IMG/VR virus record: IMGVR_UViG_2645728091_000014
Coordinates: 1-11,289 of that record
Reading direction: 5' to 3' (one strand)
Length of the DNA: 11,289 nucleotides
Source: a virus
Taxonomy: Duplodnaviria; Heunggongvirae; Uroviricota; Caudoviricetes
Shown one piece after another: positions 1 to 11,289 of the stretch. The notes under the pieces were generated by a model. It was given only the letters and a program-made list of their open reading frames with translations. It was not told the origin of the DNA and searched no databases. Within the stretch, counting starts at the first letter, position 1; each line of letters opens with the position of its first letter. The position numbers and the translations under genes were made by a program.

Positions 1-249
1 ATGCGCACACAGGTTGTATTGCAAAAATGGGGTAATAGCATTGCCCTTCGACTAACGGGAAACCTTAAAACCGTTCCGGGTTTTTCAGTGGGTGATATCG
101 TCAACGTTGAAATTAGTGAAAAGGGGCTTTTTGTAGAAAAGCCTGCACGCCGTCGCCTGAGTGAAGCCGAATTACTCGCCGGGATAACGCCAGTTACAGC
201 GCACGCGGACGAAATTGCCCCCCCATTCAATGAGGAGGTTGATTACTGA
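1..249 (+). CDS. MazE/PemI-family antitoxin (SpoVT/AbrB-type)
   Basis: 82-aa ORF starting with ATG at base 1. N-terminal K-W-G-N-S-x-A-x-R motif is typical of MazE/PemI/ChpS antitoxins. Stop TGA (247-249) overlaps the ATG of the downstream toxin gene (TGATG). Confidence 0.8.
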   Translation: MRTQVVLQKWGNSIALRLTGNLKTVPGFSVGDIVNVEISEKGLFVEKPARRRLSEAELLAGITPVTAHADEIAPPFNEEVDY

Positions 250-593
250 TGTTTGTACCTAAGCGTGGTGATATTTGCTGGCTGGATTTTGAGCCGCAGA
301 AAGGAAAAGAGATCGGAAAGTATCGCCCGGCACTCATACTGTCCCATGAGCAATATAACCGACTCACCGGGCTTGTCATATGCTGCCCCATAAGTACGAG
401 CATACGAAATGCTCCCACAGAAGTTCCGGTAACAAATCTGGACGCCCCCAACGTTGTAGCAACCACACTCATTCAAACCCTTGACTGGCGTCAGCGGAAA
501 GCGCGCTTAATCACAGAGGCAGAAGATGGGGTATTTAATGATGTGCTTGAAAGAGTCATTACCCTGATTGGCGGAGAGCATCTGCTTAAGTAA
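249..593 (+). CDS. MazF/PemK-family mRNA interferase toxin
   Basis: 114-aa ORF with the family-typical N-terminus (P-x-R-G-D-I-x-W-L-D-F-E-P-x-x-G-x-E-x-G-x-x-R-P-A-L-I-L-S), comparable to MazF/ChpBK/PemK. Start overlaps the antitoxin stop. Confidence 0.85.
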   Translation: MFVPKRGDICWLDFEPQKGKEIGKYRPALILSHEQYNRLTGLVICCPISTSIRNAPTEVPVTNLDAPNVVATTLIQTLDWRQRKARLITEAEDGVFNDVLERVITLIGGEHLLK

Positions 594-597
594 AAGG

Positions 598-615
598 AGG
601 GCTGAGAAGCCCTCA
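598..615. terminator. GC hairpin between convergent genes (possible bidirectional terminator)
   Basis: GAGGGCT (598-604), loop GAGA, AGCCCTC (609-615), lying between the toxin stop and the stop of the minus-strand 423-aa ORF. The T-tract is weak on both strands. Confidence 0.35.
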
Positions 616-636
616 ACGTTACCGGAAATTTCCTTG

Positions 637-1908
637 CTATTCTTTCCAGTCAATCCCATCCAGTAAGCACCCTGCTTCATATTGCCCCACCACCCAGTCA
701 AGGTTACAGGACTCATAGAACGCGAGGCGATTATACTGAGGCTCGTTTTTTACCAGGCCACGAACGGAACCACGCTGCCAGTACAGACACAGATTGGCAA
801 GAGGTGTGATCAATACAGCATTGTCCGGGAAAAATGGAACGGTCACAGCCGGGAGATTCCCCAGAACAGGATTTTTAATGATTTCCTCGTTAAGCAAAAT
901 TTCCTGATTCATCTGCGATGGATCAAGACGGTTTATCAAAGGCCATTGCTTACGGACCAGCGTATTGTGACTGCATACGGCCACAATGCCTTCCTGCCAC
1001 TGTTCATCAATCATGGATTGCCAGGCATCCAGAACGAGCGCATCTATCGTATGGTGTGTACCGCGTGTATTACTTTTCGGTGATGAAACAGAAAGGCCGC
1101 TGATAACCCTTCCCGCCGCTTCATTTCGAAACTTCTGCAACCAGCCCACGCCGCAATCATCACGCCCCGGATATGTTCCGGGATCTGATGTATCGGCATA
1201 GTGCGTACCGTTAAAACCAATCTGAATCAAATCCAGCCATTTCCGGCGTTCAAAAGCAGCCCGTGCGCTTCCTTCAAGACCGTTTGCGGATGCGTGAGCA
1301 TCAACATTGTCGTAGTTCAGCGCAAAATCAAAATTAACCTGCTCGCAGCGGTAGCCCCTTGAAACCAGTGAATGCGCCTGTAGTGGCGAACGGCGCGCGT
1401 GAGACGGTGATGTGCGTGCCAGCGGCCCCGAAGCGTCTACCAGCACAACCCGACCTGATATATCCGTAACAGGCACGGGAGTTATTTCAGCAAGGAAATT
1501 TGCCTGCCATCCACTGGCAAGCGTTGCACTCTGGCGGGGAACAGGCTCAACTTCTGATGAATAGCGCGCAGTGTCATCGGAAAAGTGCAAGTCCTTCGGA
1601 TGCTTTCCGGTTATCGACTCGATAGCGAGATTGAAAGCTATCTGAGACTGTTGATTTCGTTGTGACACAACAGAACCAGCAGTGCGATTATAACGCTCAA
1701 TGCCGTTGTTATTGCCCTCACCGTTTGCAGAATGCAGGGTGTGAAGCTCGAGTTCGCGCTCCAGTTTTTGATATTCATTGTCCAGGGCGCGACGGGTTTC
1801 ATCGCTTATGCCTGCTGTATTTGCTTTCAGGCGATTCCGGGACATTGATCCCCTGAGTCGGCTCACTATATCAGCGACGTGCAAATGTGGAATGTTCAGA
1901 CCGCCCAT
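637..1908 (-). CDS. hypothetical protein ORF2 (423 aa), function unknown
   Basis: Long minus-strand ORF. Preferred start is the ATG at 1908-1906, which overlaps the TAA stop of ORF1 (minus-strand TAATG) and is preceded by GGGGGTGG. The track's 470-aa version starts at 2049 and would overlap ORF1 by 141 nt. No Walker A, CxxC or other motif recognised by eye. Confidence 0.7.
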   Translation of the reverse strand: MGGLNIPHLHVADIVSRLRGSMSRNRLKANTAGISDETRRALDNEYQKLERELELHTLHSANGEGNNNGIERYNRTAGSVVSQRNQQSQIAFNLAIESITGKHPKDLHFSDDTARYSSEVEPVPRQSATLASGWQANFLAEITPVPVTDISGRVVLVDASGPLARTSPSHARRSPLQAHSLVSRGYRCEQVNFDFALNYDNVDAHASANGLEGSARAAFERRKWLDLIQIGFNGTHYADTSDPGTYPGRDDCGVGWLQKFRNEAAGRVISGLSVSSPKSNTRGTHHTIDALVLDAWQSMIDEQWQEGIVAVCSHNTLVRKQWPLINRLDPSQMNQEILLNEEIIKNPVLGNLPAVTVPFFPDNAVLITPLANLCLYWQRGSVRGLVKNEPQYNRLAFYESCNLDWVVGQYEAGCLLDGIDWKE

Positions 1909-2618
1909 TACTGCCACCCCCGGCAGAGTTCTCTGCCCTCCGCAAGGTCGCGCATTTTTTCTGAATTCTGTCGCGCTGCGCTCCATTGTACAGGTGAAGG
2001 GGCGCTCCTGATTGCGCAGCTTACTGAATCCGGGAGTTTCTCCGGGCAATAACGCAGCGGGCTGGAGGTGTCGCTTTCGGTATCGTTAATCCGGCCGCGA
2101 ATCATCCCGACACTTTCAGCAGTATCTGCCGCTTTCAGTGTTTCGCATATTTTCTTTTCTGCGTTATACAGCGGCTGGCCAAGCAGCTCACATAAACCAC
2201 GAATCAATAACAGAACAGGGGTCAGCTCGTTAATCAGTTCGGGAAGTGCTTTTGCAAATATCTCTGCCCGCAACTTATTATCAATACTTTCGTAAGCACA
2301 ACCAGCCTCTGCCGCGTTATAACGACACTCCAGTAGCCTGATGCGCGCCTCATCATGCAGCACCCGCAGACGCTCAAGATTTTCTCGCGCCACACCCGCC
2401 TGAATGGATAATTTCGCGGAGGCTTCCGTTTTTACTCCCAGCGCAGACAGGATTGAGTTCTGCCAGTCACGATCGAGAGACTCCAGTTCCCCTTTCGTCT
2501 GTTCGATAGTCGCTTCCAGATTGGTGACTAATGATTCCTGTTCACTGAGTTTTGCCCTGGCAGTATCAAACCGTGCTTTACATACCTGATGTTCGGCGCT
2601 TGCCTGAGTTATATCCAT
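1908..2618 (-). CDS. hypothetical protein ORF1 (236 aa), predicted helical; possibly Psu-like
   Basis: ATG at 2618-2616 preceded by AGGAG with a 6-nt spacer. N-terminal half is rich in heptad-like charged/Leu segments. Weak resemblance to my recollection of P4 Psu (N-terminal FDT, central A-L-x-P-E-L...E-L-T), unverified. Confidence 0.7.
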   Translation of the reverse strand: MDITQASAEHQVCKARFDTARAKLSEQESLVTNLEATIEQTKGELESLDRDWQNSILSALGVKTEASAKLSIQAGVARENLERLRVLHDEARIRLLECRYNAAEAGCAYESIDNKLRAEIFAKALPELINELTPVLLLIRGLCELLGQPLYNAEKKICETLKAADTAESVGMIRGRINDTESDTSSPLRYCPEKLPDSVSCAIRSAPSPVQWSAARQNSEKMRDLAEGRELCRGWQ

Positions 2619-2627
2619 TATTTGCTC

Positions 2628-2728
2628 CTGTAATACATTTTTTACTTACGCCGATTTTTTCCATATTGCGTAATACATTCCAGCCGATTTTGTTCTCGTA
2701 ATACGCTCACAATACTGTTGTATTACGC
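2628..2728. promoter_or_regulatory. divergent control region with four GTAWTAC heptamers
   Basis: GTAATAC at 2630-2636, 2670-2676 and 2698-2704; inverted GTATTAC at 2720-2726. Lies between the starts of ORF1 (minus) and the RHH gene (plus). The ORF1 ribosome-binding site abuts the first copy. Confidence 0.45.
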
Positions 2729-2782
2729 TTTCTTATATCGCGGGTGTTAAATCCCGGCATAAACAATCAGGGAGGCAACACG

Positions 2783-3016
2783 ATGAAAAAACAAAAGAAA
2801 ATGCGATGCGTATTACGCTGTATTCGTATCCCGCACGAAATCGACCATAAAATAAATCAGATGTGTGAGGACAGAGAGATGAACTACTCCCAGTGCGTCA
2901 GAATGTTTATCAGTCAGGGAATTAAGGCCGGGGAAACGCAGGAAGAAGACCGTGACGGGCGCAATGTGGCGGGGGATGTGTGGGCCTGGGCAAATGACCA
3001 GAACCACACGACGTAA
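2783..3016 (+). CDS. putative ribbon-helix-helix (Arc/CopG-like) DNA-binding protein
   Basis: 77-aa ORF from ATG 2783 preceded by GGGAGG with a 7-nt spacer (the track's 2744 start is a GTG without an RBS). Residues VLRCIRIP then two helices (EIDHKINQMCEDREM, NYSQCVRMFISQG) fit the beta-strand/helix/helix pattern of Arc/MetJ/CopG repressors. Confidence 0.55.
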   Translation: MKKQKKMRCVLRCIRIPHEIDHKINQMCEDREMNYSQCVRMFISQGIKAGETQEEDRDGRNVAGDVWAWANDQNHTT

Positions 3017-3066
3017 TACAGCAATAACGCAGCCGGTCACACTCGCTGGCTGTGTTATACAAATCA

Positions 3067-3249
3067 CTATGAAGTTTTCGCCTTCCTGCGCTTAGTGATG
3101 CGTACAAACGACTCAAGCGTACAAAAACAAGCCCCACACTCAATATTATTGCACTGGTAATACGTTCTGTAGATGTTTTGTTCGTGTTCTTCCAACGAAC
3201 GACCACGGGTGCGGGCTGAAGCGCCACAGGCCGGGCAAGGGAAAGACAT
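3067..3249 (-). CDS. ogr: Ogr/Delta-family zinc-finger late-gene transcription activator
   Basis: 60-aa ORF with C-P-x-C...A-R-T-R...Y-x-C-x-N-x-x-C...F-x-T-x-E-S, matching the Cys4 pattern and spacing of P2 Ogr / P4 Delta. AGGAG 6 nt upstream of the ATG. Confidence 0.8.
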   Translation of the reverse strand: MSFPCPACGASARTRGRSLEEHEQNIYRTYYQCNNIECGACFCTLESFVRITKRRKAKTS

Positions 3250-3283
3250 ATCACGCTCCTCTTACTGGTGTGAAATTTAACCT

Positions 3284-3289
3284 ATTATA
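3284..3289 (-). promoter_or_regulatory. candidate -10 hexamer (TATAAT on minus strand) for ogr
   Basis: Perfect TATAAT on the minus strand about 35 nt upstream of the ogr ATG. No convincing -35 at 17 bp, so activator dependence is possible. Confidence 0.3.
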
Positions 3290-3610
3290 TCTTCCGCCGC
3301 CTCCTCTGGCTGTATCAAATAAACCCGCAGCAGTCGCCGCGTATTACGCACGGGCGCACCGTTCTCATGCTCACTCGTCACATTCCCCGTATCAGTTCTC
3401 TCTTGCCGTAAGAACGGCTCTGGCTGGCGATAAAACTAACCCGGTCGGGCATTCCCGCAGCCTTTAGCGAAAATGTCATTTACCCCCTGAAACGCGTGCT
3501 GTTCCCCCGTCACCTGCGCGCGAAAAACTCACCGTTTTTTGTGCACGCACGAAATCGCCCTCCGGGCGCGCCAGTACTGGGCCGGATGGGCAAAAAGTTA
3601 CTCTAAAAAA

Positions 3611-3637
3611 TTGTGCAAATTTGTGCACTTTTGTGCA
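3611..3637. repeat. three direct TTGTGCA repeats at exact 10-bp phasing
   Basis: TTGTGCA at 3611-3617, 3621-3627 and 3631-3637; a fourth copy at 3539-3545. Two copies extend to the palindrome GTGCAC. Confidence 0.6.
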
Positions 3638-3862
3638 GATGAACAATAGCGTCAAAAAGAGTGCTTTTGAGAGATTTTTTATGGCAACTGCGCCGCGTGT
3701 ATTACGTTTTTTACCATCCCCGCCGTGCATGTACATACTTCATTTTCTGCCAAACAACAGGGCAACTCCCCGTGACTGACAGCCCCAAAAAATCAATGAT
3801 TAATGTTGCATTTTTGTTAGAGATTAGACCAGTTGTTTTGGGGCTCTGCCTCATAATCCGGT

Positions 3863-4179
3863 GGGGGGTGCGCAAAGCGGTTACAACGGTTACAACAGTT
3901 AAAAACACAACTTAACAGTATGATTTTAATGGATATTGTTTGTAACCGCTTTGCGGTTACACTGCGGTTACAACGGTTACAGGTTTCAAAAAGCACTTTA
4001 TTATCAATCAATTAAAAACTTAACCTGTAACCGCCTGTAACCTAACAAAACGGTTACATGTAACCGCGTTGTAACCGCTTTTGTAACTCATCCGACCAGT
4101 TATAATATATTGATATATAATACAAAAATAAGTAATTCTAAATTTGTAACCGTTGTAACCGCTTTGCGCATCCCCCCCC
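3863..4179. repeat. iteron array bounded by a perfect 27-bp inverted repeat; putative ori/crr-like or att-arm region
   Basis: 3869-3895 (TGCGCAAAGCGGTTACAACGGTTACAA) is the exact reverse complement of 4144-4170, extended by G6 (3863-3868) / C8 (4172-4179). At least 13 GGTTAC/GTAACC hexamers lie between, as direct repeats (3878-3895, 3953-3981, 4024-4043) and palindromes (3941-3961, 4051-4066). An AT-rich stretch sits at 4100-4143 and an IHF-like WATCAANNNNTTR match at 4002-4014. Confidence 0.6.
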
Positions 4180-4366
4180 AAACTTTAGCGCGACCCTTTA
4201 AAATGTTAATTAAACTCACTTACTCTGTCTCATTCTCATTAACTCTCTGTGATTAAAATGTATCTCGTCATTATTTGACTCTTTCTGATAATCAGGGGGC
4301 AAAAAATTGATGGCGGCACCACTGCAATATGGCCACCATTGCATTGCCGTTACCGTTGGTTCTGGC

Positions 4367-4397
4367 CAACAAAAAAGGTCAGCGGGAAACTGACCTC
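4367..4397 (-). terminator. rho-independent terminator downstream of int
   Basis: Stem GGTCAG (4377-4382) / CTGACC (4390-4395) with 7-nt loop. On the minus strand it is followed by TTTTTGTT, 30-60 nt after the int stop. It is also T-rich on the plus side. Confidence 0.6.
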
Positions 4398-4425
4398 TTT
4401 TGCTGTGAATGTAGCGTTCTGCGGG

Positions 4426-5430
4426 TTACTCTGCTGGCTCTTTTTCTTCGATGATCACTATGTTGGCTACCGGGTTAAATCTCATGGCATCTGCCAGATA
4501 ATCCGGTGCAAAATGTGCGTATGCCATAGTCTGCTGAATTGTCGCATGCCCAAGGATTTTTTGTAGCGCAAGAATGTTGCCACCGTTCATCACAAAGTGA
4601 CTGGCGAATGTATGCCGCAATACATGCGCAGCCTGCCCCCTCGGTAAATCGGGTTTTATTTTTTTTAATGCCCGGCAAAACTCTCTATACTTCACATCAA
4701 ACAGTCGCCCGGTTTCTTTTGTTTTTACGGCATCGCATATTTCCTGCGACACAGGCACCGTTCTTTTTCTACCGTTTTTGGTTTCCAGAAACGTTATTCT
4801 ATTATGAACTATTTGCTCTCCATGCAATCTGCTGGCCTCACTCCAGCGGGCTCCGGTACATAGACACAAGAGCGCAACCCTTCGTTGATCTCCATTCAGC
4901 CCGTCAAGCAACAATGTGACCTCGTTTTTTGATAAAAAGGCCATTTCCCGCTGCTTTACATAAAGAACAGGAATACCACGAACCGGATGCTCTGCATCCC
5001 ACAAACCGATCTTTTTCAGGGCTGTAAACATCCCCGATAATCTGTTCATGTATCTGTTTGCTGAGGACGGCTTTAATCCTTCCGCAATTTTCTGCGATCG
5101 CCATGCAATGATTTTTAATTTGTCGAGTTCTACCGCAAACATGTCAGCTCCAAGCTCATTAATAATTTTGCCAAGCTGCTGTTTATCCGTGTTTGCCTTT
5201 CGCCTGTGCTGACCGTGATAAACCCACCACAATTCCAGTAAATCGCTAAGCGTTCTCCGGTCGCGATAGCCCTGTATAAACTCGCGCTTTTCGGCGTTCG
5301 CTATGATGTACCGTTCAGTTGCTGTAGCTATCGATTTTTTGTCAAATATTCTTCTGATGCGCTTCCCTTTACGTCCGCATGGCCTGATATCGAGCAGCCA
5401 CCGCCCATCATGCATCTTTCTGATCGGCAT
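4426..5430 (-). CDS. int: tyrosine recombinase / phage integrase (P2-type)
   Basis: C-terminal H-x-L-R-H-T...L-G-H...Y catalytic motifs. N-terminus (DGRWLLDIRPCGRKGKRIRRIFDKKS) resembles P2/186-type integrases. Preferred ATG at 5430 lies 2 nt after the primase stop with AAGGAGG upstream; the alternative ATG at 5466 adds 12 aa. Confidence 0.9.
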   Translation of the reverse strand: MPIRKMHDGRWLLDIRPCGRKGKRIRRIFDKKSIATATERYIIANAEKREFIQGYRDRRTLSDLLELWWVYHGQHRRKANTDKQQLGKIINELGADMFAVELDKLKIIAWRSQKIAEGLKPSSANRYMNRLSGMFTALKKIGLWDAEHPVRGIPVLYVKQREMAFLSKNEVTLLLDGLNGDQRRVALLCLCTGARWSEASRLHGEQIVHNRITFLETKNGRKRTVPVSQEICDAVKTKETGRLFDVKYREFCRALKKIKPDLPRGQAAHVLRHTFASHFVMNGGNILALQKILGHATIQQTMAYAHFAPDYLADAMRFNPVANIVIIEEKEPAE

Positions 5431-5432
5431 GT

Positions 5433-8102
5433 TTAACGCCCCTCCTTGTAACTGAATATCCGGCATTTCAGTACTTCCGGCTCTCTGGCCTCGGCGACCC
5501 CTCTTCCGGCGTTTGCCTGTCTGGAGACCTCACTACGAATGGTTTTGCGGCCTGTCAAAGGTCGGGAACGTCCTGCTCCGAGCAACTCAATCATTTCGCG
5601 GTCAGTGCGGATCTCCACGCGGTGAATAGCGGCAGCCTGTGCCAGTTGCGGAATACTGATAGCAATCCCCTCGCGGCATCCCTTGCCGTAGTGGTTTACA
5701 CCGTATTTTGTTATGCCGTCCAGGAAGTCGAACGCCTCCCAGAACTCCATCACTTCCGGTAAATCAGCCGCCGCCGCTTTAACCTGCGCTGTTGCCATTT
5801 GTTCCAGTTCCAGACATGTGGCATCAAGCCATTCATCTGGGATATCAATAACGCATTTCAGCGCCCTGACCAGCGCGATAAGTTGTGCGTGATTTTTGGC
5901 GATGCGGGGATGGCGAATATTTTCGCATCCGCAAAGGCGTTCCGTTTCAACTGGAGATACTTCCAGGAACGTTTGCATAATCGCCCGTTCCTGACTTGCC
6001 GCCCGGTGAATAAACCCAGATACCTTCTCGACGGGGTAAAGTTCCAGCCGTCTCGCCGCCAGGCGGGTATCAGGTGAATGGCGTTTTTTATCGGTGTATA
6101 TGCGTATCAGGCGCTCAATAATTGCCGGAGAGGCGTTTACCCGCGCATTCTGCGCAATCACGATAGCGCCCTTAAAATCCGGATCATAGGTGTTGTTATT
6201 GTTGGCCTTAACACCACGAACGCCGATACCACCGCCGTTATAGAGACTTTTCAGGTTATCGAAGTCAAACGCACCTCTTTTTTGCGCATTGTCTCCCCGG
6301 TCCGCTTCAATCAGAACAACAGGTAATCCGGCGACCTGTCCAAAGGTGCGCTTCCAGCCCGCCTCTGATCCTTTGGTTGGATCAACGCCTTCATAGTTGT
6401 CACGACCGCACAGCCGCCAGCAAAAATCAATCAGTGTTGATTTACCCGTTCCGGGCTCCCCGGTGACTTCAAGGAAGGGGAAGGATTCTTCTTTATCCCG
6501 GATTTGTTCGCTGAACAGGGAGCCCAACCAGAAAGCCAGGGTAATAATTCCCTTTTCACCAAAAGCCAGCCAGAGATCTTCCACCCAGGACGCTGTAAAT
6601 TCATCCGGTTTTTTGTAGTTAATCTGTAATGTGGGTTTTTCGCTTAATGGTTTTGCGTTTATGCCATCAATTTCAAAATAATCCTCATCATTGATTTCAT
6701 AAGTTTTACCCTTATAAACGGCAATATCATTAAACAGCCATGCCCCAATTCCCTTGTTGTATCCGATAAAATCCTGACCAATAACCTCTTTTATTGCGGG
6801 AAGGTCATTTTTTATTAATGCGTCAAGCTGCGTAGTCGTTCCGGTATAAATACCGCCTTTTGCCACGTGCAGCAGGCGTTTTTTAAATTCAGATGAGGAT
6901 GTTAATTGTCCTGATGTAAAGGTGTTTTTCACCGTAGCACCATCCGGGAATGTAACGCGGAAGTAATACCATGCTTCATCCGTGTCATTGTTTCGAATGT
7001 AATAAAGCGGCACTGGGTTACAGTTTGCGATTTCTTTTACAGCACCGGATTCCTTAAGTGCAATTTTGCGCGCTTCGTCTTCGTCAACATTTCGCTCATT
7101 AATGACACGCTCAACAGCCTTCATATGGCGCTCAATGTCCAGCTTGAACCAGAAAACACGGTTATCAAAAGTAAAATGAAATTCCTTCCGCTCACGAAAG
7201 GAAAACATTATTAGTGCCTTATCTCTTGGAGATTTCGCCAGCAATAAATCACCGTAATAACGGTATCTTTTCACATCATGGCCACGCAGCTTTCCGGCGA
7301 TGTGTAAATCATTCCAGTCGCGTTTATTGCTGTTTTTACCCGGTAACGCCGCCGCCGTTCTCCAGCCGTCTTCGGCGCTGCGTTCTGCATGTTTTTTCGC
7401 GTAACGTTCACCCGCACGCCCGTTATCCAGGGCCCACACAATAACCGGACGGGGATTATCTCCGCACAGCTTCGCCAGCTCTTCCAGCGCCTTATCAGGG
7501 TAGTTCACGGCAGACATGACAGAAACGGCCGCAATGCCATTCTGGTTAAGGCTGATGGCATCAAAGATGCCCTCACAAATCCAGATTTCTTTGGCCTTGC
7601 TTAAATCTGCTCCCGGATAAGCCCACCACAACCCCTTGTAGCTGCCGGAAAAATTCGCCTTGCGCGCGAAGCGTCCCGGTCGGTCTATGATGCGCTCCCA
7701 CCACACGCCGTCAGCCAGCGTAAAACGCACAGTAGCGGCCTGTTCGCCGTTTTCCTTGTCCTGGTATCGCTCCTGAGTAAATGCGCCCTTCAGTGGCCCC
7801 ACAGCAATATTGCGCGCTTCCTGAAGATAAGCTGCCGCCGCTGCATATGGCTCATCTTTCGTGCTGATATAACGATCTGACCATGATGAAAACACATCCG
7901 GGTAAAGTTCTTTGGTCAGCAGGTCTATACCGCATTTATTTTCGCGCCCACAGTGTACGATGTACGGCCTTTCAAGGCTGGTAAACAACTCTTTCTTTCC
8001 ACATTGCGGACAAACACCATACCGGAGGTAGTTATTTTCTTCTTTGAAGTTGTAATCACGGATAAGACGGTTAATAATCTCTTTTCTGATGTCAGATTTC
8101 AT
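5433..8102 (-). CDS. alpha-like DNA primase-helicase (zinc-binding N-terminus, TOPRIM primase, SF3/D5-type helicase)
   Basis: N-terminal C-P-x-C...H-C...C zinc motif, TOPRIM-like E-G-I-F-D-A and L-D-N-G-R-A-G, and Walker A G-E-P-G-T-G-K-S-T. Preferred ATG at 8102 with GGAG 8 nt upstream; the track start at 8126 is a GTG inside a hairpin. Confidence 0.9.
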   Translation of the reverse strand: MKSDIRKEIINRLIRDYNFKEENNYLRYGVCPQCGKKELFTSLERPYIVHCGRENKCGIDLLTKELYPDVFSSWSDRYISTKDEPYAAAAAYLQEARNIAVGPLKGAFTQERYQDKENGEQAATVRFTLADGVWWERIIDRPGRFARKANFSGSYKGLWWAYPGADLSKAKEIWICEGIFDAISLNQNGIAAVSVMSAVNYPDKALEELAKLCGDNPRPVIVWALDNGRAGERYAKKHAERSAEDGWRTAAALPGKNSNKRDWNDLHIAGKLRGHDVKRYRYYGDLLLAKSPRDKALIMFSFRERKEFHFTFDNRVFWFKLDIERHMKAVERVINERNVDEDEARKIALKESGAVKEIANCNPVPLYYIRNNDTDEAWYYFRVTFPDGATVKNTFTSGQLTSSSEFKKRLLHVAKGGIYTGTTTQLDALIKNDLPAIKEVIGQDFIGYNKGIGAWLFNDIAVYKGKTYEINDEDYFEIDGINAKPLSEKPTLQINYKKPDEFTASWVEDLWLAFGEKGIITLAFWLGSLFSEQIRDKEESFPFLEVTGEPGTGKSTLIDFCWRLCGRDNYEGVDPTKGSEAGWKRTFGQVAGLPVVLIEADRGDNAQKRGAFDFDNLKSLYNGGGIGVRGVKANNNNTYDPDFKGAIVIAQNARVNASPAIIERLIRIYTDKKRHSPDTRLAARRLELYPVEKVSGFIHRAASQERAIMQTFLEVSPVETERLCGCENIRHPRIAKNHAQLIALVRALKCVIDIPDEWLDATCLELEQMATAQVKAAAADLPEVMEFWEAFDFLDGITKYGVNHYGKGCREGIAISIPQLAQAAAIHRVEIRTDREMIELLGAGRSRPLTGRKTIRSEVSRQANAGRGVAEAREPEVLKCRIFSYKEGR

Positions 8103-8115
8103 ATATAAAACTCCA

Positions 8116-8145
8116 CCCCACTGCACCTTTTGCAGTGGGGTTTTT
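8116..8145 (+). terminator. perfect 10-bp GC hairpin plus T-run in the primase 5' leader
   Basis: CCCCACTGCA (8116-8125), loop CCTTT, TGCAGTGGGG (8131-8140), then TTTTT (8141-8145) on the plus strand. On the minus strand the stem is followed by UGGAGUUUUAUAUAUG, which contains the primase RBS and start. Confidence 0.45.
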
Positions 8146-8150
8146 ATTAA

Positions 8151-8450
8151 TTACTCGTTACTTATTGCTTTGGCAATCCCGGCGGTTTCGGCACTATGCC
8201 ATGAAAAAATTCCGCCAGAAGTATGCATTCCTGACTTAATCGCTCGTAATTCCCGATAAAGAATGTTAGTTAATGATTCCATTTCATTAATTTGCACTGG
8301 CATTCTCTCACTGGTATTAATTTCACCTGTCAATGCTGAAAGGAGCGCAATAACATTTATTACATCTTCAAGATTCTCAATGGAATCTTCCGTGAAAAAA
8401 CCAGCGTATTCTTTTTTGTATATATTGCGGATATTCTGATTTTCAGACAT
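8151..8450 (-). CDS. hypothetical protein (99 aa), AT-rich
   Basis: ATG at 8450 preceded by GGGGAG with a 5-nt spacer. Visibly more AT-rich than the flanking primase and small-ORF block. Confidence 0.5.
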   Translation of the reverse strand: MSENQNIRNIYKKEYAGFFTEDSIENLEDVINVIALLSALTGEINTSERMPVQINEMESLTNILYRELRAIKSGMHTSGGIFSWHSAETAGIAKAISNE

Positions 8451-8517
8451 AAAAACTCCCCGACCCGTTAAGATCGAAATATAAATTTAATTCAGTTATC
8501 AGTTGGTAATTCGGGAA

Positions 8518-8736
8518 TCAGGCGGAAAGCTGCGTCACCTTCAACGCTTTGAAATGTGTCATTCCCAGCTCTTCCAGCCCTTCGGCTGCGCGGCGTATGG
8601 CTTCGCCCGGTCCCGTTCCGTATACCGTTGCATGTGCATGTTTGGTTAACCCACGTTTATTAACGGCATAACCCAACACAAAGAAACGTTTTTCACCACT
8701 GCCATTATTTTTACGGGATATTGAACGGCTTTTCAT
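8518..8736 (-). CDS. hypothetical small protein (72 aa)
   Basis: ATG 8736-8734 overlaps the TGA stop of the upstream ORF (ATGA), indicating translational coupling. Confidence 0.5.
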   Translation of the reverse strand: MKSRSISRKNNGSGEKRFFVLGYAVNKRGLTKHAHATVYGTGPGEAIRRAAEGLEELGMTHFKALKVTQLSA

Positions 8737-8921
8737 TTCTTCACCTTTAGCACTGATGCTGTGAGTTCTTCTTCTGGCAATTGATATTTCGGCGCAATTT
8801 CTTCCGTATACCTGATAGCATCCCTTGCCGCTTTTCCTTTTGATTTATATTTACGTATCGTGTAGAAGTTTTCTTCCTCTCCTGTTACCACATTACGCAA
8901 TTTAATATGAATCTCGTACAT
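8733..8921 (-). CDS. hypothetical small protein (62 aa)
   Basis: Preferred ATG at 8921 is preceded by GGAGGGG and sits 2 nt after the TAA stop of the upstream ORF. The track version starts 10 codons earlier at 8951. Confidence 0.5.
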   Translation of the reverse strand: MYEIHIKLRNVVTGEEENFYTIRKYKSKGKAARDAIRYTEEIAPKYQLPEEELTASVLKVKK

Positions 8922-8923
8922 CG

Positions 8924-9106
8924 TTACCCCTCCATGATTTTTACTGCGCATTTGTGGGTTAATCGCCCCTGTTTGTCATTGCGGGAATATGCCATACGAC
9001 AGGCATCACGCCATGCATCGTCATAAGTCGGATATTCCCAGGAATGAATCATCTGGCGAACGTCGCCGTTCTGGTAGTTAATCAGGGTGATAAGGAGCTT
9101 AAACAT
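8924..9106 (-). CDS. hypothetical small protein (60 aa)
   Basis: Preferred ATG at 9106 is preceded by GGGAGG about 7 nt upstream. The track's 86-aa version (start 9184) has no RBS. Confidence 0.5.
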   Translation of the reverse strand: MFKLLITLINYQNGDVRQMIHSWEYPTYDDAWRDACRMAYSRNDKQGRLTHKCAVKIMEG

Positions 9107-9272
9107 GGCACGCCTCCCGGACACGGATACGGGCAACAAAGACCAGACGGGATGCCGGAAGCATGGCGCGCGCTTCGCGCTCACTGGCAGCGGTAACGGT
9201 ATGAAGGCGAATATTTTTACCGTGGCACTGCATAAAGCGCCAGATAAAATCAGGGCGTGTTGATATAGCCAT
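9099..9272 (-). CDS. hypothetical small protein (57 aa), possibly Icd-like
   Basis: ATG at 9272 preceded by AAGGAG. The track's 175-aa extension to 9626 is low-complexity and lacks an RBS. The E-R-E-A-R ... L-V-F-V-A-R-I motif pattern resembles my recollection of Icd-like proteins in P4-like prophages, unverified. Confidence 0.4.
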   Translation of the reverse strand: MAISTRPDFIWRFMQCHGKNIRLHTVTAASEREARAMLPASRLVFVARIRVREACHV

Positions 9273-9629
9273 TTTGGCGGCTCCTTGATTAAGTTTACGG
9301 AGTCTCGCCAGCACGCTGCTAAACATGGTGGCGGGACGTAACAGGGTTAGCAGACTGGCAATCAAGGAACCAGCGAGCGCAAAGGCTCCCCCATTACGCC
9401 CCGCCATAATACGGGGTAGGGTGGAATTACGGGCACAAAAAAACCGCATTACGGAAATATAGCGGCTACCCGCTTGATTGTTCAGGCTGCTAAACCCGGC
9501 ACCCGCTTTATGAGGTGCGGGCAAACGATACGCCATGACAAAAAAGCGAGTCAAGCAATATTGCAAATTATTTTTGCTCACTTGCGCTGAGTGATTGATT
9601 TTAAAGAGTAAAAAAGCCATAATCATTTC

Positions 9630-9720
9630 TGCCTATTACTTCTTATTGCTGACTTTAGGTGCATTAAATGCACATCCTTGACTGGTTGGCTCGCTAGCTT
9701 CAGCGAGCTTCTTTTTTTTT
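9630..9720 (+). ncRNA. candidate ~90-nt plus-strand small RNA, antisense to the minus-strand operon leader
   Basis: Plus-strand TTGATT (9595-9600), 17-bp spacer, CATAAT (9618-9623), then a GTGCATT/AATGCAC hairpin (9659-9673) and a terminator hairpin with T-run (9689-9720). No plus-strand ORF of note. Confidence 0.25.
9689..9720 (+). terminator. intrinsic terminator oriented on the plus strand
   Basis: GCTCGCT (9689-9695), loop AGCTTC, AGCGAGC (9702-9708), then TTCTTTTTTTTT (9709-9720). On the minus strand the A-run precedes the stem, so it is not a minus-strand terminator. Confidence 0.5.
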
Positions 9721-9820
9721 GCTCTGCTGCCAGTACTTGGCCTCCTTCCCCCACATGTAGCAATACGTTCAGATCAGTAAGTTTTGCCACCCAGTGATGG
9801 ACGCAATAAACCACCAACGC

Positions 9821-10141
9821 TTATTCAACTCTGGCGCTACCGGATTCTCTCTCCCTTTTCTTTTTGGCGTTTTCGTATGGGTTATTCACTTTGGCAATAA
9901 CTGGCGGATTACGTAGCCACCACAAAACATCACTTAACAGCCAGGTACATGAGCAACGCCCCAAAGAGTGACGAGGAGGAAAAGCACCGATCTTCTCCAG
10001 TTCCCAGCGGCGGGAGCGTGAAAGCGTGGTCATTTTTTTACACTTCTCTTCCCTGATGCGTTCTTCGCAGTCAAAGCCATACTCGGCGAGTATGGTGCGG
10101 CGCTGTTCTGGAGTTGGTGGAATGAATGCGGATTGAGTCAT
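9821..10141 (-). CDS. alpA: AlpA/Vis-family phage transcriptional regulator (excisionase-like HTH)
   Basis: 106-aa ORF. The segment L-S-R-S-R-R-W-E-L-E-K-I-G-A-F-P-P-R ... W-L-L-S-D-V-L-W-W-L matches the AlpA HTH pattern. Confidence 0.8.
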   Translation of the reverse strand: MTQSAFIPPTPEQRRTILAEYGFDCEERIREEKCKKMTTLSRSRRWELEKIGAFPPRHSLGRCSCTWLLSDVLWWLRNPPVIAKVNNPYENAKKKRERESGSARVE

Positions 10142-10202
10142 ATTTCCCCCTATGTTTCTGAACTTTCGGGGGAGATTTTTGTTTTACGGAGTTTTGAAAG
10201 CA

Positions 10203-10239
10203 AGTATTAAAGGTCTTATTAAGATGCTTGCTGGTCTTA
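10203..10239. repeat. two 15-bp direct repeats 21 bp apart in the alpA upstream region
   Basis: GGTCTTATTAAGATG (10203-10217) and GGTCTTACTGAGATG (10224-10238), 13/15 identical, overlapping the 3' end of the 350-aa ORF. Confidence 0.35.
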
Positions 10240-11289
10240 CTGAGATGATGCTTTAATCCATCTTGATATAGTACTTTTATCAAAGCGCATATTGAGTCCT
10301 GCCTCTCTTGCTTCCGCGGTCAATATATCAGCAAGTTTTACCGGATTGTTTTCGAGTTCTTTATAATGAATAACAAGCATCGCACGAAAAAAATCCTTCA
10401 TTGTTTTAGATAATCGTTCTATATTGTTTTTATTGGTGCATATGTCTTTCTCTCCATCCTCAGAACTTAATATATTGTTACCCGCACACAAATATAAAGT
10501 ATCTGCCAATGGATTAACATAATCTTTTCTTAACTCGCTATTGGAGTTTGTAGCATTTTGTATTTTTAAAAAATCATTCTTTAAGATATATAAATCACCA
10601 ATATCAAAAGAAACATCCTCAGTAACAATTAGTCCTATATGTATATCAACGTCAGAAGCAATTATAATATTGCTATTAATTATTCGGTTGGCTTTAAACT
10701 TCTTATTAAAATCATAGTTGGCAAAAAAACTTCCCCCCAAAGCGAAAATGCCGCCTATTTCAACAAAATACTTATGGTATTTTTCTTGAATACCTTTAAA
10801 TACTGGTGGCACAACTGCCACAGCTCTTTCATCCGTTGCTATTCGATATACACTATATATGTGATAATTTTCCCCATAATATACCCCCCTGTTATAATAA
10901 TTTAACAAAGCAAATGCAGTATCAATTGCTATGTCACCAAATTTGGGCGTTACATATGAATGACTTAGAGATTCGCACATTGAATCAAATATAATTCTCG
11001 ACTTGGTTTTTATATAATTAAAACCATGGTGTTCTGCCGCCCTTTCTGAAATGGCATCAAGATCAGATAACCGTGATTTACACGGTTCTGAATCCATAAA
11101 CTTACGCAGACAATCGAAATTAACCACATCTTTTTCATCTGGGATATTTAATACTCCATATGCAGATTCAATTTTTATACAAATACGAATGCAGCCTGTC
11201 ACAGCCCAATGAATAAGATCGTCAATATCGCAGTCTAATAACTTTGCCGCGCGCTCAATAGGATAGTAATCTCTTAGTGGTAACGTCAT
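10237..11289 (-). CDS. hypothetical protein (350 aa), AT-rich, HTH-like segments at both termini
   Basis: ATG is the last three bases of the window, so the true start may lie upstream. N-terminal Y-P-I-E-R-A-A-K-L-L-D-C-D-I-D-D-L-I-H-W and C-terminal A-D-I-L-T-A-E-A-R-E-A-G-L-N-M-R-F-D-K-S-T-I-S-R-W-I-K look like helix-turn-helix elements. A weak G-G-S ... S-D-V-D-I stretch was noted. Confidence 0.65.
   Translation of the reverse strand: MTLPLRDYYPIERAAKLLDCDIDDLIHWAVTGCIRICIKIESAYGVLNIPDEKDVVNFDCLRKFMDSEPCKSRLSDLDAISERAAEHHGFNYIKTKSRIIFDSMCESLSHSYVTPKFGDIAIDTAFALLNYYNRGVYYGENYHIYSVYRIATDERAVAVVPPVFKGIQEKYHKYFVEIGGIFALGGSFFANYDFNKKFKANRIINSNIIIASDVDIHIGLIVTEDVSFDIGDLYILKNDFLKIQNATNSNSELRKDYVNPLADTLYLCAGNNILSSEDGEKDICTNKNNIERLSKTMKDFFRAMLVIHYKELENNPVKLADILTAEAREAGLNMRFDKSTISRWIKASSQ

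Follow-up and report, generated by a model that had tools for sequence, protein, structure and literature searches.

Small autorepressors of the ribbon-helix-helix (RHH) type that act through palindromic operators are a familiar device, with Arc/Mnt, omega and CopG among the known examples. In the Arc-operator structure, base contacts are made by Gln9 and Asn11, and the omega protein of pSM19035 and pSM22095 (inc18) places one RHH dimer on each 7-bp WATCACW unit, with the number and orientation of the units varying by promoter such that several operons are coordinated. We know of no repressor that acts on the late promoters of phage P2 or of P4. The DNA considered here (hereafter the window, 11,289 bp) comprises positions 1 to 11,289 of IMG/VR record IMGVR_UViG_2645728091_000014, and is an integrative P4-like satellite of P2-type phages from E. 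coli. Within it, a gene for a 77-amino-acid RHH-like protein lies among repeated copies of the word GTAWTAC. On the strength of sequence comparisons, we consider it likely that these words are the cores of 9-bp operators at which this adjacent protein acts as a repressor.

The arrangement that we propose resembles that of Arc/Mnt in the immI region of Salmonella phage P22, where a small RHH-type protein is encoded beside divergent promoters. As there, the satellite protein would repress a neighbouring operon and its own synthesis through palindromic operators in the core promoters. However, two Arc dimers together occupy a single 21-bp operator, whereas the satellite has about seven dispersed single 9-bp palindromes that lie 22-90 bp apart and reach 0.5-0.9 kb away. 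There is also no significant sequence similarity to Arc, and the 77-amino-acid protein carries at its C terminus an extra helix, which includes a conserved Trp. Unlike the contiguous heptad arrays of omega, the satellite units are isolated palindromes, and the setting is satellite morphogenesis rather than plasmid copy number and partition.

Four computed results bear on this proposal, namely the enrichment of the motif, the conservation of the sites and of their positions, the co-variation of the sites with the regulator allele, and the presence of a separate box for the late activator Ogr. The first-pass annotation of the window had described eight copies of GTAATAC/GTATTAC between positions 2628 and 3705, and all eight are found where it placed them, but the count falls short by a ninth copy inside ogr (3157-3163). 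It had also mentioned only one other copy in the window, and there are two (1067 and 6963). The 11 copies in the full 11,289 bp compare with a mean of 1.04 (standard deviation 0.98, maximum 5) in 200 dinucleotide-preserving shuffles, which bears out the enrichment that this annotation had proposed to check against shuffled sequence. For the 1,078 bp of the interval 2628-3705, nine copies stand against 0.13 expected from 20,000 first-order Markov simulations (Poisson P ~2.5e-14), and the densest stretch of 1,078 bp among 5,000 simulated whole windows contained at most three.

GTAATAC/GTATTAC is the commonest 7-mer of this interval, and the enrichment reaches 8- and 9-mers, with CGTAATAC present six times and GCGTAATAC four times, both confined to the interval within the window. 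The sites are therefore better called 9-bp palindromes, and the full site is YGTAWTACR (YGT-AWT-ACR). An identical 11-mer, GCGTATTACGC, had been reported at two sites and is indeed seen at 2808-2818 and at 3339-3349; it is a perfect palindrome about its central base. Also as described earlier, four copies (2630, 2670, 2698 and 2720) lie in the 164-bp divergent region that separates a gene for a 236-amino-acid protein (minus strand, the ORF1 of the first-pass annotation) from the small gene (plus strand).

The candidate operators, labelled O1 to O7, occupy suggestive places. O1 (TGTAATACA, 2629-2637) abuts the Shine-Dalgarno sequence of the 236-amino-acid late gene and would lie in the 5' untranslated region of the late operon, and O2 (CGTAATACA, 2669-2677) would lie in its core promoter. 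If the geometry of the annotated P2 promoter pO applies, late transcription would start near 2647, which would put O1 at about +11 to +19, O2 at -22 to -30, O3 at -50 to -58 and O4 at -72 to -80. O3 (CGTAATACG, 2697-2705) is present only in the window's lineage and falls among the 12 bp that separate the two halves of the Ogr box; O4 (TGTATTACG, 2719-2727) is at the -35 position of what is probably the regulator's own promoter. O5 (CGTATTACG, 2809-2817) falls within the regulator gene, at codons 10-12 (Val-Leu-Arg). O6 (also CGTATTACG, 3340-3348) forms the centre of a perfect 11-mer about 67 bp upstream of the predicted ogr start, and O7 (TGTATTACG, 3698-3706) lies 60 bp past the last TTGTGCA repeat of a P2-type cos region. 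Two further copies carry no operator label. One (CGTAATACA, 3012-3020) overlaps the stop codon of the regulator gene and seems weak or dispensable, and the other (GGTAATACG, 3156-3164), inside ogr, matches the 7-mer only and is not of the YGT..ACR form.

Purifying selection acts on these operators within the E. coli lineage, judging from an alignment of 16 distinct window-type sequences collected from E. coli genomes, metagenomes and IMG/VR. Variable positions account for 107 of the 685 non-coding positions (16%) and for 1 of the 54 that make up the six non-coding operators (hypergeometric P = 8e-4), the sole change being a T/C difference at the Y of O7. O1 and O4 are invariant in all 16 variants, and O6 keeps a fixed 9-mer between two variable flanks. 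O7 forms an invariant island (3699-3711) where 54% of the surrounding positions vary, and O5 has a single Y-to-Y change. The copy at 3012-3020 is lost (G to A) in 6 of the 16 variants and is probably dispensable; the copy at 3157 is invariant, though it is within the coding sequence of ogr.

Word-indexed homologue searches with the 77- and 236-amino-acid proteins returned almost solely close E. coli relatives. Searching with the capsid protein of the element uncovered a separate clade whose members, from Salmonella, Klebsiella, Erwinia, Pectobacterium and E. coli, are 40-52% identical to it and score far above true P2-like phage capsids. We examined sister loci L010-L012 and L028-L034, and nearly all of these contigs share a layout in which ogr, the small gene (on the opposite strand), a gene for a 237-244-amino-acid protein and the capsid gene follow one another. 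The exceptions are L030 and L032, which place ogr differently (in L032 it lies downstream of the capsid gene). Homologues of the small protein are present at the same place in all sister satellites, with the pattern xSVLRxxRIPHELDxxI...YSxCV...W. Other searches added little, in that a three-sequence alignment of the small protein used as query gave few loci and single-allele scans of viral contigs gave no further ones. An apparent 52% homologue (L002) was set aside, as its fragmented genes suggest that it is this same locus in an error-rich assembly.

Counted from the ATG of the small gene, the operators of the window stand at -154, -114, -86, -64, +26, +557 and +915, and those of Salmonella locus L010 at -157, -113, -63, +23, +573, +677 and +930, at a control-region identity between the two of only ~54%. 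L031 and L033 were retrieved only once L010 had revealed this pattern and so provide a forward test, in which both showed it again: -160, -114, -64, +23, +188, +598, +715 and +954 in L031, and -157, -113, -63 and +670 in L033. The shared places are beside the late-operon ribosome-binding site, in the predicted late core promoter, at the predicted regulator -35, upstream of ogr and beyond cos. A 9-bp palindrome at the O1 position is also present in Salmonella, Klebsiella, Erwinia and one further sister element, and there is none at this position in Pectobacterium L028 or E. coli L012. Beyond cos, a YGT-N3-ACR site follows the TTGTGCA triplet by 58-62 bp in six elements. Palindromes kept at the same positions in homologous satellites, against so divergent a background, support the earlier suggestion that these are operator-like sites of a shared regulator. 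The first-pass annotation had counted an absence of such conservation among the refuting outcomes, and the reverse is seen.

The centre of the palindrome changes with the N-terminal strand of the small protein. Alleles were assigned to types by the residues just before the conserved Pro. Type A, which includes the window and is found in E. coli, has CVLRCIRIP and sites of the forms CGTAWTACG and TGTAWTACR, and type B, from Salmonella, has SVLRT[LM]RIP and TGTAWTACA. Type C, from Klebsiella, Pectobacterium and Erwinia, has SVLRA[VL]R[IV]P and TGTATAACA, with TGTCATACA beside the Shine-Dalgarno sequence. Type D, from E. coli locus L012 at the same hpt site as the element of the window, has SIRRTIRIP and three copies of TGTCWGACA, and its DNA had no match in complete E. 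coli genomes. VLRC and VLRT thus go with GTAWTAC, VLRA with GTATAAC and IRRT with GTCWGAC, and GTAWTAC is missing, one stray copy aside, from type C, D and E control regions (type E being a shorter variant discussed below). Across types the general form is YGT-N3-ACR, with the GT and AC bases invariant.

The site aligned with O2 is TGTAATACA in type B elements and TGTCAGACA in type D, where one copy is in exact register with the O2 of types A and B. The O5 codons GTA-TTA-CGC recur in Salmonella L010 and L031 but in neither type C nor type D. Upstream of ogr, operators are likewise present in types B and D, at variable distances. By analogy with Arc, the residues two, four and six places before the Pro should face the DNA. 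The residue at two is an invariant Arg that aligns with Arc Arg13, and those at four and six, which align with Arc Gln9 and Asn11, carry the allele differences. Furthermore, where Leu is replaced by Arg, the symmetric palindrome positions 4 and 6 change from A:T to C:G. A 9-bp palindrome also fits one RHH dimer, which is a point of geometry in favour of the small protein. The first-pass annotation had named the adjacent RHH protein as the simplest regulator, and this co-variation argues for that choice, as does the separate Ogr box, which weakens the case for Ogr.

This box is predicted on the minus strand at 2694-2711, where TcT-N12-ACA, one mismatch from TGT-N12-ACA, comes after TTTTGT. The window reads TTTTGTTcT-CGTAATACGCTC-ACA at 2688-2711, and it is this sequence that places O3 within the spacer. 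No exact TGT-N12-ACA is present in the control region of the window. All sister satellites have TTTTGTTGT-N12-ACA/AGA, exact or with one mismatch, between their -113 and -64 operators. The satellite box is nearly identical to the gpO-gpP box of a P2-like prophage (cTTTTGTTGTaagaaaacagtcAGAaca) and is 84 bp from the ATG of the first late gene, compared with 83 bp in the prophage. The annotated P2 activator site, centred 55 bp upstream of the pO start, is also an imperfect match to TGT-N12-ACA. The satellite resembles P2 and P4 in having an Ogr/Delta gene and a predicted, aligned box whose spacing to the first late gene agrees with that in P2-like phages, and differs from them in that the box is flanked, and in the window interrupted, by putative operators of a second protein.

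The satellite's own Ogr/Delta-like zinc-finger protein has to be weighed as the binder, with the palindromes serving as compact TGT...ACA sites for autoregulation and late activation. The site ends do resemble the TGT and ACA halves of the Ogr box. An adjacent ogr accompanies the sites throughout, and ogr alleles diverge in step with the motif types. Moreover, some ogr-upstream sites are centred ~-54 to -67 from the -10 element, an activator-like distance. We nevertheless think it unlikely that Ogr is the binder. The same region already holds a separate TGT-N12-ACA-type box almost identical to that of the P2-like prophage, and the half-sites in the window's lineage are mostly CGT rather than TGT. 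Sites at a Shine-Dalgarno sequence and at a divergent -35 are not in activator positions, and the variable bases track residues at RHH DNA-contact positions.

There is a similarly slim chance that another trans-acting factor is responsible, such as a helper-phage protein, the AlpA-like protein or a 350-amino-acid protein of the element, and that the small protein has some other job. Satellites commonly sense helper proteins, the cos-distal sites do not strictly follow the allele rule, and the comparison across motif types covered the small protein, Ogr, the primase and the second integrase. However, a host factor is excluded by two E. coli elements that occupy one and the same hpt site yet have different palindromes. 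Also excluded are the element's primase and second integrase, in that the motif is the same in elements with another primase (toprim/DUF927 in L010, D5_N in L031) or without a second integrase. A 16-kb stretch of P2-like prophage contains GTAWTAC only twice, in scattered places, and the conserved association of sites with the promoter and first codons of the small gene points to that gene. The same prophage stretch, together with the distance of most sites from cos, led us to reject a function in terminase action or at cos. An invertible segment between the identical 11-mers was rejected as well, since all 55-57 E. coli copies are collinear and in one piece.

That the cluster has no regulatory function, and is a chance, compositional or coding artefact or a duplication remnant, is very improbable: three copies do lie in coding sequence (2810, 3013 and 3157) and the one at 3013 is lost in 6 of 16 variants, but the cluster has P ~2e-14, the unrelated flanks of the copies leave duplication as no explanation, and the sites are invariant amid variable surroundings, with positions kept across genera at 54% background identity.

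If the small protein is the binder, the placement of its sites favours a repressor, because O1 abuts the Shine-Dalgarno sequence and O4 covers the predicted -35 position. Under P2 geometry, the placement of O1 to O4 suggests that both the late operon and the regulator's own gene would be repressed. We envisage that each 9-bp palindrome is bound by one dimer of the 77-amino-acid protein. With O1 (ribosome-binding site) and O2 (core promoter) occupied, the late operon that encodes the 236-amino-acid protein and the capsid protein would be silent, and occupation of O4, on the predicted -35, would have the regulator repress its own gene. Expression of ogr would probably be damped when the sites are occupied, with O6 lying upstream of that gene. 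Once this repression has been relieved, Ogr supplied by either the helper or the satellite would act at its box, and late expression would follow. In the window's lineage the small protein may also compete with Ogr at O3, because this site lies inside the Ogr box. By function only, such a switch would resemble that of the master repressors of phage-inducible chromosomal islands, for instance Stl of the Staphylococcus aureus pathogenicity islands, in which an element-encoded repressor silences the satellite until a helper is present. However, Stl is a helix-turn-helix protein that controls excision and replication and is relieved by helper proteins, whereas the satellite regulator has a different predicted fold and would target a capsid/ogr module, in an element that also has P4-type C4/isrK RNA immunity.

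The predicted promoters of the sister loci are consistent with autorepression. In all seven type B and type C loci, GATAAT (GACAAT in one) stands exactly 17 bp after the last 6 nt of the O4-equivalent operator, and O4 of the window aligns with these -35-position operators. Cognate sites therefore appear to overlap core elements of the regulator's own predicted promoter, as would be expected of an autorepressor. For ogr, a perfect TATAAT is found in the window at 3284-3289 (minus strand), ~35 nt upstream of the ATG, and a -10-like hexamer (TATAAT, TAATAT, ATAATA, TAGAAT, GATAAT or CATAAT) was identified by eye at a similar distance in all eight elements with an identified ogr. The ogr-upstream operators and O7 could be auxiliary operators, looping partners or roadblocks.

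The fold of the 77-amino-acid protein is compatible with RHH, as far as models and sub-threshold matches can indicate. The window protein has no Pfam match at E <= 0.01 and no PHROG match. When the Pfam threshold is relaxed to E <= 10, CopG_antitoxin is matched by 4 of 10 family members (best E = 0.04, below curated cut-offs), and other sub-threshold matches are to RHH_5, RHH_9, RelB and TraM (family matches E = 0.02-0.15). An AlphaFold2 monomer model (predicted local distance difference test score 66) has helices at 18-31 and 35-51 and the extra helix at 62-76, the latter bearing the conserved Trp. The top Foldseek matches are Arc, CdbA, TacA, TraM and ORF56, all at E > 0.6, with Arc chains the best. 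The strand register of Arc can be aligned (IRIPHE over LRWPRE), although this hhalign alignment with Arc is not significant, and there was no sequence match in the PDB.

Several observations weigh against the small protein as the repressor. The RHH assignment is significant in no single test (Pfam, Foldseek, PDB or hhalign), and the monomer model makes segment 9-16 a short helix rather than a strand, with the strand forming only in the dimer. The -10 element of the regulator promoter is less clear in the window than in the sister loci, and the ogr-upstream operators stand at variable distances from the -10 (centres ~-54 to -87) without overlapping it. The cos-distal sites depart from the allele rule in type C locus L029 (TGTATTACA) and in type D locus L012 (TGTATGACA), for which recombination at cos could be the explanation. 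Type D rests on a single locus with three sites, and a repeated palindrome was looked for with the type E alleles (L030 and L032) and none was found. Lastly, Ogr alleles co-diverge with the small protein, and phylogeny therefore cannot part the two.

A broader reading, which we offer only tentatively and consider doubtful as a whole, is that the small protein and its palindromes form the central switch of an undescribed family of P2-parasitic satellites with their own capsid protein. Its strand might embody a code in which palindrome positions 4 and 6 are A:T or C:G according to whether one residue is Leu or Arg, and in which the outer and centre bases may match the choice of Cys, Thr or Ala at the next residue that faces outward. 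Distinct regulator-operator types may spare co-resident satellites from cross-reaction, in the manner of heteroimmunity. Through O3 in the Ogr box, the repressor of the window's lineage may rival Ogr directly, and the Trp-containing C-terminal helix may receive a helper signal.

Although this type of switch is ordinary, the regulator and the type of satellite are absent from the literature that we searched, a limited search having found no paper on the 77-amino-acid protein family or on P4-like satellites with a P2-family capsid gene. The proposal gives a candidate function to a small protein family without a Pfam or PHROG entry, and offers a testable wiring by which a P2-dependent satellite would silence its own capsid genes and couple them to the late activator of its helper. 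In addition, the natural allele series GTAWTAC, GTATAAC and GTCWGAC provides a compact system in which to study base reading by a DNA-binding beta-strand. Finally, satellites with a P2-family capsid gene are brought to notice across Enterobacterales, in contrast to P4.

SatelliteFinder describes P4-like satellites by int, alpA, alpha primase, delta, sid, psu and epsilon. The P4-like features held by the element of the window are AlpA, a toprim primase, ogr/delta, a flanking integrase, C4/isrK RNA and a P2-type cos. No Pfam or PHROG match to Psu or Sid was found for the 236-amino-acid protein or the other scanned open reading frames, and the window has a P2-family capsid gene instead. P4 is described as being without capsid and tail genes (PMC9122126). 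The major capsid gene (637-1908, minus strand; PF05125, E = 3e-73) is the second gene of the late operon, and its product has 35-40% identity to the capsids of 186, PSP3 and related phages and an N-terminal extension of ~120 amino acids. Directly upstream, in a conserved place, is the first gene of the operon (1908-2618, minus strand), which encodes the 236-amino-acid coiled-coil protein. This protein has no Pfam or PHROG match, and we would guess at a capsid-assembly role from its gene position alone. The regulator gene (2783-3016, plus strand) is an annotated coding sequence with a good Shine-Dalgarno sequence, and the ogr/delta-like zinc-finger activator gene (3067-3249, minus strand; PF04606, E = 3.7e-11), which is annotated in RefSeq, is convergent with it. 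A type C-like palindrome, TGTTATACA at 3052-3060, sits between these two convergent genes. In the type E loci L030 and L032, the regulator is a shorter RHH-like variant ([YW]RGIRVP, 59-65 amino acids) accompanied by exact TGT-N12-ACA boxes.

The window is identical to sequence of E. coli 600468 between hpt and gcd, and an integrase gene bounds the element just outside the window. The module was found in 57 of 5,426 complete E. coli genomes, and the element is also present at a second chromosomal site. The element of E. coli GF60 sits at a different chromosomal site (near upaE), which makes it evident that the satellite is mobile. Its ogr and cos are separated by an inserted IS21-family element (L005, 9805-12112).

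The P2-type cos region (3472-3638, minus strand) includes a cohesive-end-like 19-mer at 3496-3514, which matches P2 cosL at 14 of 19 positions, and three TTGTGCA repeats at 3611-3637. Approximately 400 E. coli genomes match this stretch at ~83% identity without an annotated feature there, and at the one locus inspected the cos-like stretch adjoins the portal gene of a P2-like prophage. A 'hypothetical protein' annotated by RefSeq at 3476-3736 (minus strand), spanning cos, probably does not represent a real gene. The interval 3860-4180, located between cos and the second integrase, is densely occupied by GCGGTTACA(A) iterons that point in either direction, and is probably a replication origin for the primase or a site for the second recombinase. 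At the equivalent place in the sister locus L012 (7558-7761), there are GGTGTAACA iterons. The second tyrosine recombinase (4426-5430, minus strand), which is additional to the flanking integrase, lies directly downstream of the primase gene; among the sister elements, L010, L028 and L029 do not have it. The window also carries, besides this toprim primase, an AlpA-like gene and the gene for the 350-amino-acid protein. Rfam models for C4 antisense RNA (74.7 bits) and isrK (52.1 bits) match at 9324-9531 (minus strand), inside an open reading frame annotated as Icd-like, and these RNAs constitute RNA immunity of the P1/P4 type.

At the end of the element, the cargo past the capsid gene varies. 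MazEF is encoded there in the window (1-593), in L010 (11450-12033) and in L031, and a UDG-family protein takes this place in L011 (11576-12082) and L034. The spot looks like a hotspot for defence or addiction functions. In L029, the cargo past the capsid gene (8109-13308) comprises GmrSD and a type I restriction subunit.

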